NCBI GenBank assembly: GCA_013178165.1
Contig: JABLXG010000036.1
Location: forward strand, 6,874 to 70,873
Length of the DNA: 64,000 bases
Source of the DNA: Anaerolineae bacterium
GTDB taxonomy: Bacteria > Chloroflexota > Anaerolineae > Aggregatilineales > Ch27
Direction: 5' to 3'
The notes under the pieces are model-generated. The model was not told where the DNA came from and made no database searches. It worked only from the letters and a program-made list of their open reading frames with translations. Position numbers and translations under genes: made by a program. Each line of letters opens with the position of its first letter. The first letter of the stretch is position 1. This document shows, piece by piece, positions 3,400 to 48,189 of the stretch.

Positions 3400-3546
3400 A
3401 GTTTCTCACTCCATCCGGGATATCGACACTACTTCCTGGGGTTGTTCGATGCAGGACAGGGAAAGATCGTCACACCCGCCGCCGATTTCTAACGTGTTTT
3501 CTATATGACCTGCCAGTGCCTGCGACTGTTTTTCTAGCCCTGCTCA

Positions 3547-3575
3547 TTGACTTTTGGCGACAAAGACAGTATAGT
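3547..3575 (+). promoter_or_regulatory. Sigma-70-type promoter candidate for cysM (TTGACT-17 nt-TATAGT)
   Basis: TTGACT at 3547-3552 and TATAGT at 3570-3575, with an exact 17-nt spacer, in a locally AT-rich stretch. Confidence 0.5.
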
Positions 3576-3581
3576 TTTTGC

Positions 3582-3819
3582 AGATGTTCATTGGAGAAAT
3601 TGCCATGTATGCACAATTGACCTGCTTGTGTCTGAGGCGGGGCCGCTAGCCACCTCTTCAGACCAGGTCATCCCGCAGGTGAAAACTGAGGCCAACGGCT
3701 GAGAGAGTGGCAGCGTCCCCGCGGCGGTGGAGTTGCGCCCATCGCCAGCAATCCGGCGTGTACTGGGAACGCGACCGCTCTTTTGTTTTGTCCGTTGGAC
3801 TTTTGTTTTCATCACAGGG
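3582..3819 (+). promoter_or_regulatory. Long structured 5' leader of cysM with a Cys-codon uORF and U-tract (candidate attenuator or riboregulator)
   Basis: uORF 3605-3649 (SD GGAGAA 6 nt upstream) encodes MYAQLTCLCLRRGR*. A GC-rich segment at 3700-3779 can pair GUUGCGCCC with GGGAACGCGAC. It is followed by CTTTTGTTTT at 3780-3789 and a second copy at 3800-3809. Confidence 0.35.
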
Positions 3820-4782
3820 ATGATCATGACCGTTCAAGTATATGACCCACGCATCACCGTCCGCCCGGAAGCCCGTTCACTGGAGCAACTGGTCGGGAAC
3901 ACGCCCCTGATTGGCTTCCAGCGAATCACCCGTCACCTGCCAGAAACGATCGCCATCTACGCCAAAGCGGAATGGTACAACCCTGGCGGCAGTATTAAAG
4001 ACCGCGCCGCGCTCAACATCATCCTCCAGGCTGAAGCCGACGGGCAGCTCTACCCCGGCAAGATCATCCTGGAAAGCACCAGCGGCAACACCGGCATCGC
4101 CCTGGCTATGTTCGGCGCAGCGCGCGGCTACCCGGTCAAGCTCTTCATGCCGGAAAACGCCAGCCCGGAGCGCATCCAGATTCTGCGCGCTTATGGCGCG
4201 GAGGTTGTTCTCACACCCGCTGAAGAAGGGACGGATGGCGCGATGCTGGCCGCCAAAGCTTTACTGGCGCGCCAGCCGGAACGCTACTTCTATGCGGCGC
4301 AATACGATAACCCGGCCAACTGGCTGGCCCACTATCACGGCACCGGCCCTGAAATCTGGGAGCAAACCGGCGGGCAGATCACGCACTTCGTGGCCGTGAT
4401 GGGCACGAGCGGCACCTTCACCGGGGTAACCCGCCGCCTGAAGGAGCTGAACCCGCGCCTCATGGCGATCTCGCTCCAGCCGGATGCCCCCTTCCACGGC
4501 CTGGAGGGTATGAAGCATATGCCTTCGGCCATCAAGCCGGGCATCTATGACGCCAGCCTGGCCGACCGCAACCTGCCCATCCGCACTGAGGACGCCCACG
4601 CGATGGTATTGCGCCTGGCGCGGGAGGAAGGGCTGCTCGTCGGCGTGAGCAGTGGGGCGGCGATGGTTGGTGCGCTACGGGTGGCGGAAAGCCTGGCAGC
4701 CCAGGAAAAGGCAGCCACGATTGTGACCGTCTTCCCGGATAGCGGGTTCAAGTATCTTTCCCGGCCACCCTTCCAGGGGTAG
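3820..4782 (+). CDS. cysM: Cysteine synthase, CysM type (PLP-dependent, resembles mycobacterial O-phosphoserine sulfhydrylase)
   Basis: PLP lysine motif GGSIKDRAA, TSGNTGIALA, QYDNPANWLAHYHGTGPEIW, ITHFVAVMGTSGT, GVSSGAA. Start ATG at 3820 or 3826. Confidence 0.85.
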   Translation: MIMTVQVYDPRITVRPEARSLEQLVGNTPLIGFQRITRHLPETIAIYAKAEWYNPGGSIKDRAALNIILQAEADGQLYPGKIILESTSGNTGIALAMFGAARGYPVKLFMPENASPERIQILRAYGAEVVLTPAEEGTDGAMLAAKALLARQPERYFYAAQYDNPANWLAHYHGTGPEIWEQTGGQITHFVAVMGTSGTFTGVTRRLKELNPRLMAISLQPDAPFHGLEGMKHMPSAIKPGIYDASLADRNLPIRTEDAHAMVLRLAREEGLLVGVSSGAAMVGALRVAESLAAQEKAATIVTVFPDSGFKYLSRPPFQG

Positions 4783-46402: not shown

Positions 46403-47209
46403 CTACTCCGTGATGCAGGGGTTTTCCAGCCGCCCGATCCGCTCGATTTCGACCACGATCACATCGCCGTTCTGCAGGAAGATCGGCGGTTTGCGGAAGA
46501 CGCCCACCCCATCCGGCGTGCCGGTCAGGATGATATCCCCCGGTTCCAGGGTGAACGCCGCCGAGGCAAAGGCGATCAGGTGAGCTACAGAGAAGATCAT
46601 TTCTCCCGTGTGGCTGTCCTGCATCACCCGACCGTTAAGTGTGGTGCGGATCGCCAGCCGCTGCGGATCGGGGATATCAGCAGCGGTTGTCACCGCCGGC
46701 CCCAGCGGGCAGAAGGTATCCAGGCTCTTGCCACGCACCCATTGTTTATCGCCGTACTGCAGGTCGCGGGCGGTGACATCATTGGCAGCCGTGTAGCCAA
46801 AGACATAGCTCAGCGCCTCAGATTCAGGCACGCGGCGGGCCATCCGCCCGATCACAACTGCCAGTTCGGCCTCAAAATCGACCTGGCTGGTCAGCGCCGG
46901 TGACCAACGGATCGGGTCACCGGGATTGTTGATCGCGGTAGTGAACTTGGTGAAGATGATCGGCCATTCCGGTGCGGGCTTGTTCTGTTCCCGGCAATGA
47001 TCCCAGTAATTCTGACCGATGGCGACGATCTTGCCGGGCCGCTCCACCGGACTGAGCAGCCGCGCCCCGGCCAGCGGGATGGTAGCCACGCGGTCCGGCT
47101 GGCGTCCCGCCAGCACTTCAGACCAGCTCAGGGAGGTCAAGGCAATCCGGTCGCCATCCACGACACCGAATACCGGCTTGCCATCGTGCATCACCCGTAC
47201 CCACTGCAT
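46403..47209 (-). CDS. Fumarylacetoacetate hydrolase (FAH) family protein
   Basis: ATG 47209 after SD AAGGAGAG. KIVAIGQNY, FEAELAVVIG, YTAANDVTARD, GDIILTGTPDGVG. Confidence 0.8.
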   Translation of the reverse strand: MQWVRVMHDGKPVFGVVDGDRIALTSLSWSEVLAGRQPDRVATIPLAGARLLSPVERPGKIVAIGQNYWDHCREQNKPAPEWPIIFTKFTTAINNPGDPIRWSPALTSQVDFEAELAVVIGRMARRVPESEALSYVFGYTAANDVTARDLQYGDKQWVRGKSLDTFCPLGPAVTTAADIPDPQRLAIRTTLNGRVMQDSHTGEMIFSVAHLIAFASAAFTLEPGDIILTGTPDGVGVFRKPPIFLQNGDVIVVEIERIGRLENPCITE

Positions 47210-47283
47210 TGGATATTCTCTCCTTGGGGATTGGCGGCTCACGCCTCTATAATATACCCCGCACCAGGAGAACGGGAGCACGT

Positions 47284-48189
47284 ATGTCCACCCTGCCCAG
47301 AATCGTAATCTACACAGACGGAGGTTGTTCGCCGAACCCCGGCCCCGGCGGCTGGGGCGCAGTTCTGGTGCACCCTGACAGGACGTTGGAGCTATCCGGC
47401 GGCGACCCGGAAACCACCAACAACCGCATGGAGTTGACCGCCGCTGTGGAGGCGCTCCGGGCGCTCAAGCGCCCCTGCGCCATTGACTTCTACACCGACT
47501 CCGAGTACCTGCGCAAAGGCATCACCGAATGGATCGATCGCTGGGCGGCTAACGGCTGGCGTTCCGCCTCCGGTGGCAAGGGCCACCCAATCGCCAACAG
47601 CGATCTCTGGCAGGCCCTCCACCGGCTGGCGCGGCAGCATGAAATCACCTGGCACTGGATCAAAGGCCACCAGGGCGATCCCCATAACGAGCGGGCTGAC
47701 GCCCTGGCCAGCGCCGCGATCCCCCGCCCACAACTGGCGGTTGATCCAGCCGCTACGGCGGTATATCTGCGCGTTTCCGGTACCCAGCCACGCGGGCCGC
47801 ACGGAGCTGCCGCGGCTATTGTCCGCGATGGGGATACGAGCGTCTTTCAGTATAGCCAGCCAGACGCCACAACCAATGGCTTCACGCTCCAGGCAGTTCT
47901 TGCCCTGCTGCAACAACTTCCTGCTGGCGAGCCACTCCGCTTCTATACCAACAACAGTTATCTGCACGATGGCATCACCCGCTGGGTGGAAGGCTGGCGC
48001 AACACCGGCTGGGCCAGGCCGCAGAAGTTCCGGACCGAATGGCAGGCGCTTGACCGCCTCAACCGGAGCCGCCGGATCACCTGGGTTCGCTTTGACAGCG
48101 ATAGTGAGCCGGAGGTCTTCCAGATACTCCGTACGGCGGCGGAGGAAGCCCGACGCCAGGCCGCCGGCGCCTCGTCACCGGAGAGCTAG
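47284..48189 (+). CDS. rnhA: Ribonuclease HI fused to a second, catalytically degenerate RNase H-like domain
   Basis: Domain 1 (aa 1-150) has DEDD plus His: IYTDGGC, TNNRMELTA, YTDSEY, KGHQGDPHNERADALA. Domain 2 (aa ~157-301) aligns by eye (VYLRVSG, TTNGFTLQA, YTNNSYLHDGITRWVEGW, ITWVRFDSDSE), with every catalytic residue replaced. Confidence 0.85.
   Translation: MSTLPRIVIYTDGGCSPNPGPGGWGAVLVHPDRTLELSGGDPETTNNRMELTAAVEALRALKRPCAIDFYTDSEYLRKGITEWIDRWAANGWRSASGGKGHPIANSDLWQALHRLARQHEITWHWIKGHQGDPHNERADALASAAIPRPQLAVDPAATAVYLRVSGTQPRGPHGAAAAIVRDGDTSVFQYSQPDATTNGFTLQAVLALLQQLPAGEPLRFYTNNSYLHDGITRWVEGWRNTGWARPQKFRTEWQALDRLNRSRRITWVRFDSDSEPEVFQILRTAAEEARRQAAGASSPES

Follow-up and report, generated by a model that had tools for sequence, protein, structure and literature searches.

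A gene at positions 47284–48189 (forward strand) of contig JABLXG010000036.1 from an Anaerolineae bacterium, numbered within the 64,000-nucleotide stretch analysed here (the window), encodes a ribonuclease HI (RNase HI) in which a complete enzyme domain is followed by a second domain of the same fold whose catalytic residues have all been replaced. At least 165 distinct proteins share this active-plus-dead architecture, and the dead domain is kept by purifying selection. We propose, with a probability of roughly 55%, that this dead domain (domain 2) acts as a non-catalytic nucleic-acid-binding module, joined by a linker of about ten residues to the enzyme (domain 1).

Organisation of the two-domain protein

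The open reading frame (ORF) runs for 301 uninterrupted codons on the forward strand, with zero internal stops in its translation. Its parts are listed below, where pLDDT denotes the predicted local distance difference test score of the AlphaFold2 model.

47284–48189, forward: two-domain RNase HI, whole gene, 301 aa plus stop (ORF translation, PF00075, NF001236)
47296–47727, forward: domain 1, catalytic RNase HI, aa 5–148 (PF00075, 153.7 bits)
47317–47319, 47431–47433, 47497–47499, 47668–47670 and 47698–47700, forward: domain 1 codons for D12, E50, D72, H129 and D139
47728–47751, forward: inter-domain linker, aa 149–156 (gap between hmmsearch envelopes; pLDDT ~89–91)
47752–48165, forward: domain 2, catalytically dead RNase HI paralogue, aa 157–294 (PF00075, AlphaFold2, Foldseek)
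47770–47772, 47884–47886 and 47950–47952, forward: domain 2 codons for R163, T201 and N223, which replace D, E and D
48166–48186, forward: low-confidence C-terminal tail, aa 295–301 (pLDDT 57–82; not conserved)

The N- and C-terminal halves of the protein are 35% identical (BLASTP, E = 3e-17), a similarity far above chance. An initial annotation, made from the DNA letters and translations, had described residues ~157–301 as mirroring the first domain block for block, and every block that it quoted was found. VIYTDGGC (aa 8–15) pairs with AVYLRVSG (aa 159–166) and TTNNRMELTAAVEAL (aa 44–58) with ATTNGFTLQAVLALL (aa 195–209); the block opening IDFYTDSEY (aa 67–92) pairs with that opening LRFYTNNSY (aa 218–243), and the block opening WQALHRL (aa 109–129) with that opening WQALDRL (aa 253–273).

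Domain 1 is a complete RNase HI

The same annotation had taken residues 1–150 for a complete RNase HI, which the profile searches bear out. The N-terminal half alone scores 153.7 bits against PF00075 (cut-off 25.8), and the full-length protein of 301 aa reaches 246.6 bits with the NCBIfam equivalog NF001236 (cut-off 160), with its best stretch at aa 6–148. Domain 1 is ~50% identical to E. coli RNase HI (Foldseek TMt 0.84–0.92; root-mean-square deviation 0.9–1.8 Å), and the strands and helices of its model follow one another as E E E H E H H E H, the βββαβααβα order. The active site, D12, E50, D72, H129 and D139 (E. coli D10, E48, D70, H124 and D134), is complete, from which domain 1 is predicted to cleave the RNA strand of RNA/DNA hybrids.

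Among relatives, the active-domain D, E, D and H are invariant, and the position of D139 is Asp in 112 of 121 sequences and otherwise His. Such ‘DEDHH’ active domains (D134 to H) occur in P0021, P0024, P0026, P0030, P0037, P0039, P0065, P0112, P0130 and P0133. The D134H mutant of E. coli RNase HI reportedly keeps activity; its structure, 1KVB, is among the Protein Data Bank (PDB) matches.

Domain 2 keeps the fold and loses the active site

Profile searches and structure prediction agree that the C-terminal half has an RNase H fold. PF00075 matches both halves, the C-terminal one, taken alone, at 39 bits (E = 1.1e-9; cut-off 25.8), and 27 of 27 domain-2 sequences from relatives match it as well. 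Against NF001236, domain 2 alone reaches 47.5 bits, under the equivalog cut-off of 160. The full-length AlphaFold2 model, built with a 91-sequence alignment as input, has a mean pLDDT of 94.9 and a predicted template modelling score (pTM) of 0.75, and in both halves its strands and helices come in the order typical of RNase H. Modelled alone, domain 2 reaches a pLDDT of 96.2 and a pTM of 0.89 with the βββαβααβα topology, and Foldseek aligns it with the solved RNases HI of E. coli, Shewanella and Chlorobium at template modelling (TM) scores of 0.74–0.84 and 20–26% identity. Foldseek returned no solved chain covering both domains (TMq at most 0.45), nor did the sequence search.

All five catalytic positions are substituted in domain 2, as had been claimed: D12 by R163, E50 by T201, D72 by N223 (the first N of YTNN), H129 by D273 and D139 by R283. 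The alignment of R163 with E. coli D10 is given both by the profile-to-PDB alignment and by MAFFT alignments. Of 121 family members, 106 have Arg at the position of D10; at that of D70, 69 have Thr and 40 have Asn, and only 6 still have Asp. Family-wide, the E48 equivalent is Glu or another residue, the H124 equivalent Gln or another residue, and the D134 equivalent Gly, Ala or Lys. Two-metal catalysis by RNase H depends on the DEDD carboxylates, and because these positions are replaced, domain 2 cannot work as a two-metal RNase H nuclease. It is a member of the RNase HI family by descent that is without the family’s defining catalytic feature.

Distribution and domain architectures

A protein search with the window protein returned thousands of matches, of which the top 120 are almost all 285–320 aa long with a query coverage of 87–100%. 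A domain-2 profile searched against 1.84 billion cluster representatives gave 141 matches at E up to 1e-30, most of them with two matching stretches; a genome scan with a narrower domain-2 profile gave 6 clear loci, a figure that is not a phylum-wide count. For a census of architectures, 267 retrieved proteins were split into domains by hidden Markov model and their five catalytic columns were read:

Active + dead: 154 of 267, plus 11 with D134 to H in the active domain
Dead + active: about 22 of 267
Active + active: 7 of 267
Multi-domain forms: a few of 267

The active-plus-dead total is at least 165 distinct proteins, drawn from independent assemblies (NCBI, JGI, ENA, Logan), and linkers in the family are short, with a modal length of ~10 aa. 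Named members come from metagenome-assembled genomes (MAGs) of Anaerolineae, Anaerolineales and Anaerolineaceae, from unclassified Chloroflexota, from Candidatus Leptofilum (Chloroflexota, Ardenticatenia; RefSeq WP_420642357.1) and from one Acidobacteriota MAG. The taxonomic survey suggested by the initial annotation thus places the named active-plus-dead proteins nearly all in Chloroflexota. The nearest named relative, NPV68683.1 from an Anaerolineae MAG, lies in the 90% cluster of P0001, which is itself 89% identical to the query. Database entries for named members read only ‘ribonuclease HI’ or ‘hypothetical protein’.

One apparent stand-alone dead domain, P0192 (153 aa), was rejected as a gene-calling artefact, an intact two-domain ORF lying in frame upstream. 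At this locus (L011, ~3530–4462; P0192 = MFO7664232.1) the called product is a 153-aa ‘ribonuclease H’ and the two-domain ORF is intact. Other public annotations cut to one domain are MAU00075.1 (141 aa) and MBQ7606694.1 (206 aa).

The remaining architectures are varied. The order of dead N-terminal and active C-terminal domain occurs in P0174 (a Desulfovibrionaceae MAG), P0139 and about 20 others, and the dead domains of these proteins are heterogeneous, with a mean identity of 24%, which suggests independent origins and a recurrent formation of dead/active tandems. P0170 (606 aa; L013 4001–5821, on a 3.7-Mb contig) has an active DEDHD domain followed by three dead RNase H repeats. Its active domain is without the basic handle, with ~11 residues there against 22 in E. 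coli; all three dead repeats retain the W..W...W handle, and the surrounding genes are metabolic, housekeeping ones. Two triple forms were seen: P0132 (576 aa), ordered dead–active–dead, and P0035 (509 aa), whose domains 2 and 3 retain both Asp residues and carry E48 to K, a route of inactivation unlike that of the D10-to-R family. A full DEDHD set in both domains is found in P0121, P0265, P0044, P0051 and P0052. Two of these are eukaryotic, P0121 being OHT14237.1 of Tritrichomonas foetus and P0265 the spider protein XP_015917850.2, and P0044 sits on a 3.8-Mb contig.

Selection on domain 2 and its origin

The closest locus (L001) carries an orthologue of equal length with identical neighbouring genes. 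Between it and the window, domain 1 shows a ratio of non-synonymous to synonymous substitution rates (dN/dS) of 0.092 and domain 2 one of 0.136, with dS unsaturated at 0.38–0.44. Purifying selection on the dead domain is nearly as strong as on the enzyme.

In a neighbour-joining tree of all domains, which carries no support values and in which long-branch attraction is possible, a single bipartition takes in 120 of the 121 C-terminal dead domains, and the only others within it are 7 dead N-terminal domains. Pairwise distances of domain 1 and domain 2 are strongly correlated in a mirror-tree comparison (r = 0.90, slope 1.43), domain 2 evolving ~1.4 times faster, and domain 2 is 37.4% identical to its own domain 1 against 36.9% to foreign ones. 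The single bipartition, the correlation and the lack of closeness to the partner domain together point to one ancient duplication and fusion followed by co-divergence, so that the dead C-terminal domains stem from essentially a single ancient internal duplication. Since domain 2 shows no special similarity to the domain 1 of its own protein, we reject duplications that were recent or repeated, and likewise gene conversion, within the family.

Contact residues and the basic handle

The domain-2 sequences divide into two subfamilies, a, which includes the query, and b. Subfamily b domain 2 retains C13, N16, T43, N44, N45, R46 and E48, and likewise S71, Y73, W81, W85, W90 and N100, at 94–100% (E. 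coli numbering). It is changed only at metal and general-base positions: D10 is Arg in 91% and D70 Thr in 100%, with H124 to Gln in 76% and D134 to Gly or Ala. Such a residue pattern reads as the signature of a putative substrate trap. Among solved sequences, the dead-domain profile scores best with 1RDC, an active-site mutant engineered from E. coli RNase HI that has TN for wild-type TD70, a result that places subfamily b domain 2 close to a laboratory ‘dead’ enzyme.

Subfamily a domain 2 retains Thr or Ser at 43 (89%), N45 (83%), Y73 and a handle that is still basic and has its three tryptophans. The query itself keeps T196 and N198, equivalent to E. coli T43 and N45, together with Y226, W234, W238 and W243 and a shortened basic handle. 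In E. coli, T43 and N45 are assigned to the DNA-strand phosphate-binding pocket of RNase H–hybrid structures.

Net charge of the handle was computed over E. coli residues 80–101, with single-domain controls chosen by similarity to the domain-2 profile:

Single-domain enzymes retrieved: +5.0
Active domain of active-plus-dead proteins: +2.1, with the K87 position Ala in 53%
Dead domain, subfamily a: +4.0
Dead domain, subfamily b: +4.7
Query, active / dead domain: +1 / +4

Domain 2 has the higher handle charge in 129 of 165 proteins, and in the query’s clade the means are +1.6 for domain 1 and +4.65 for domain 2 (n = 114). In P0167, P0173, P0175, P0207 and the four-domain P0170, the active domain has no handle at all and the dead domain or domains retain it. 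An isolated HIV RNase H domain, which is handle-less, depends on the rest of the reverse transcriptase (RT) or on a grafted E. coli handle; PDB 3HYF, HIV RNase H with a grafted handle, is among the sequence-search matches.

Proposed role of domain 2

We infer that domain 2 binds nucleic acid and cooperates with domain 1. In the mechanism proposed, the N-terminal domain would be the enzyme and the C-terminal domain a former duplicate that gave up its metal-binding carboxylates, exchanged its first Asp for a conserved Arg and was maintained thereafter by purifying selection. Domain 2 would grip nucleic acid through its Trp-rich basic handle and the phosphate pocket equivalent to T43/N45, supplying a grip that domain 1, whose handle lost charge in the query’s clade, may partly have given up. 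Affinity, processivity or positioning on hybrids or RNA–DNA junctions would be raised as a result. Support for such a role, which the initial annotation had raised as a possible substrate-binding module, is indirect, and comes from the retention of the handle, the subfamily b contacts and purifying selection. The handle-less active domains that stand beside handle-bearing dead ones lend what appears to be independent support to a split of roles.

Several observations weigh against this proposal. Subfamily a has lost the RNA-strand contacts N16, N44 and E48, and often N100, and its domain 2 carries a 7-residue deletion in the handle loop, so hybrid specificity in the query’s subfamily may be gone. 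Most of the invariant residues of domain 2 (G230, W234, W238, W253, W267 and Y226) also lie at fold-core positions, and their conservation may reflect stability alone. The sequences behind the handle charges are phylogenetically related rather than independent, and net charge over whole domains differs only slightly between the two. A universal shift in handle charge was given up: it is upheld for the query’s clade only and vanishes in 51 distant representatives at 50% identity, which show no asymmetry (+3.3 vs +3.5, p = 0.47). The loss of RNA-contact residues suggests that the grip in subfamily a, if there is one, would lack hybrid specificity and act on the DNA strand or a duplex next to it.

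Domain 2 could instead be purely structural, an intramolecular ‘dimer mimic’ or a scaffold for stability or solubility that makes no contact with nucleic acid. The fold-core nature of most invariant residues fits this, the short and confidently modelled linker suggests fixed packing, and Kanaya and co-workers are said to have found that replacing active-site carboxylates stabilises E. coli RNase HI. A structural partner would, however, leave unexplained why the basic handle and the subfamily b contacts are kept at ≥94% with only the metal ligands lost, and why some relatives drop the handle from the active domain and retain it in their dead domains; moreover, RNase HI of the E. coli type is a stable monomer. 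We consider a purely structural role rather unlikely.

Another candidate role is that of a protein-interaction or regulatory platform, either bringing the enzyme to the replisome, SSB or RNA polymerase or keeping domain 1 auto-inhibited pending activation. UvrC offers a precedent: its central inactive RNase H1 domain is a platform that holds the nucleases closed (PMC10085695). The drift of subfamily a away from RNA-contact residues would also fit a new, non-substrate role. Yet gene contexts vary between subfamilies with no conserved neighbour to suggest a partner, no new conserved surface motif was identified, and subfamily b resembles a substrate trap more than a new interface; we judge this reading unlikely.

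Two further readings are very improbable, namely that domain 2 is decaying after a tandem duplication of recent date, or that it still cuts weakly by means of other residues: the ~1.4-fold faster evolution of domain 2 is the one sign of decay, set against a dN/dS of 0.14, an old and co-diverging architecture and a confident fold (pLDDT 96), and the D10 and D70 equivalents are lost across the family (to R, and to T or N). A fusion created by assembly, frameshift or gene-calling error from adjacent rnhA genes, raised as a danger by the initial annotation, has a negligible chance of being right, given a continuous ORF in the window, the same single ORF in at least 165 proteins from independent assemblies, including contigs of several Mb, and gene callers that err the opposite way by shortening the gene (P0192/MFO7664232.1).

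Beyond the binding role proposed for domain 2 of the window protein, we put forward tentatively, as a possibility that we hold with some doubt, that dead RNase HI domains form an unrecognised, recurrently evolved bacterial class of RNA/DNA-hybrid- or junction-binding domain, with catalysis and grip split between paralogues. Its forms would be the active-plus-dead proteins of Chloroflexota, the dead-plus-active proteins (e.g. of Desulfovibrionaceae) and the handle-less enzyme with three dead repeats. Like a molecular ruler, the dead domain might then set processivity, or the register of cleavage relative to an RNA–DNA junction, in a manner comparable to the positioning of the RNase H of RT by the remainder of that enzyme. 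On this view it would also be a natural R-loop ‘reader’ optimised by evolution, with possible use as a probe.

Gene start and genomic context

Two candidate expression signals lie upstream of the gene:

47248–47253, forward: TATAAT, −10-like box (consensus match only)
47274–47278, forward: GGGAG, Shine–Dalgarno-like, 5 nt before the ATG (read from sequence)

An alternative upstream TTG start is listed at 47209. The placement of GGGAG and the 290–301 aa length of homologues favour the ATG at 47284 as the start and make the TTG unlikely.

The neighbours in the window are a divergent fumarylacetoacetate-hydrolase (FAH)-family gene, a response-regulator/histidine-kinase hybrid, an MGDG-synthase-like glycosyltransferase, a deoxynucleoside kinase and an ABC solute-binding protein. 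In this setting the two-domain gene reads as a chromosomal housekeeping gene of the rnhA type. The subfamily b genes are located after LysM, CBS and Pyr_redox_2 genes. No conserved partner gene was seen among the neighbourhoods inspected (the window, the subfamily b loci and P0170), and a defence or mobile-element setting is rejected, the neighbours being housekeeping genes that differ between subfamilies. The 64-kb window holds no second RNase HI and no RNase HII.

As listed, the FAH-hydrolase ORF (46403–47281, reverse strand, GTG start) comes to within 3 nt of the rnhA ATG. The Pfam match in its product starts only at residue 25, at an internal ‘MQWVRV’, so that the true start is probably downstream of the listed GTG. 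A downstream start would give a shared divergent promoter region of ~70 bp that holds the TATAAT at 47248–47253.

Significance

Textbook bacterial RNase HI is a single-domain enzyme and among the best-studied of nucleases. A large clade, mostly of Anaerolineae and other Chloroflexota, uses instead a fixed tandem of enzyme and pseudo-enzyme, which databases label only ‘ribonuclease HI’ and gene callers sometimes shorten. No description of a bacterial tandem RNase HI was found in full-text literature searches, whose coverage is incomplete, especially for subscription journals, so that this absence is no proof. The principle of a duplicated enzyme domain turned binding pseudo-enzyme is already familiar, and the mechanism given here is inferential.

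If domain 2 does bind hybrids or DNA, it would be a third independently evolved substrate-binding accessory of RNase H, besides the hybrid-binding domain (HBD) and the TBP-like domain. The retroviral connection domain would gain a clean counterpart in a cellular enzyme, and the tandem would illustrate how sub-functionalisation can follow an internal duplication. Natural dead RNase HI domains would then be candidate R-loop probes.

Comparison with known systems

Relative to the E. coli RnhA type (PF00075, NF001236), domain 1 is an ordinary member, and domain 2 has the same fold and is derived from the family. RnhA is a single domain of ~155 aa, whereas here a dead copy is fused C-terminally, and in the query’s clade the handle of the active domain is depleted in charge.

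The initial annotation had called a degenerate RNase H module best known from retroviral RT. That precedent stands, the connection domain being a degenerate, non-catalytic RNase H fold beside the active RNase H (PMC10085695), but it is not the only one: UvrC is another (PMC10085695), and some Ty3/Gypsy elements carry a ‘dual RNase H’, dead and active (PMC9040795). As in the connection domain and the Ty3/Gypsy dual RNase H, a catalytically degenerate RNase H fold here adjoins an active one in one polypeptide. The RT order is dead then active, however, and that of the window protein active then dead; a minority of the bacterial tandems share the RT-like order. The window protein, in addition, has PF00075 only, with no RT or polymerase domain, and is the product of a cellular housekeeping gene. 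Because domain 2 is still recognisable as an E. coli-type RNase HI, its origin is independent of that of the connection domain.

The HBD (dsRHbd) of RNase H1 is a non-catalytic, substrate-binding module that raises affinity or processivity (PMC1950709), and in eukaryotic RNase H1 and some bacterial RNases HI it has the role proposed here for domain 2. It differs in being a small N-terminal domain of unrelated fold, whereas domain 2 is a C-terminal RNase H fold of ~140 aa. No HBD was detected in the window protein: a Pfam scan at E up to 10 gives PF00075 only, and the protein opens with β1. The initial annotation had named hybrid-binding and dsRBD-like domains as the accessories of bacterial RNase HI, a list to which the acid-phosphatase module of actinobacterial RnhC is to be added. 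This RnhC/SCO2299-type, CobC-like phosphatase domain is absent from the window protein, which scores 23 bits against NF005567 (cut-off 326), on the RNase H part only.

UvrC likewise combines one inactive and one active RNase H-fold domain in a bacterial protein, the inactive one being non-catalytic and serving as platform and auto-inhibitor (PMC10085695). Unlike the window protein, UvrC is a five-module repair protein whose two RNase H-fold domains fall in another RNase H-like family (DDH endonuclease) and are highly divergent from each other, and its inactive domain, in contrast to domain 2, is not a suspected substrate binder.

One engineered counterpart is a laboratory reagent. MapR reportedly uses the dead RNase HI D10R/E48R as a hybrid binder that targets R-loops without cutting them. 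A plasmid for this catalytically dead E. coli D10R/E48R enzyme belongs to the MapR method of R-loop mapping (PMC6870988). The probe shares with domain 2 an Arg for the first catalytic Asp, subfamily b being naturally D10R, D70T, H124Q and D134G while its substrate contacts are preserved. The query’s subfamily has diverged further from the probe, with E48, N16 and N44 lost, and domain 2, unlike the reagent, is natural and stands in cis to an active enzyme.

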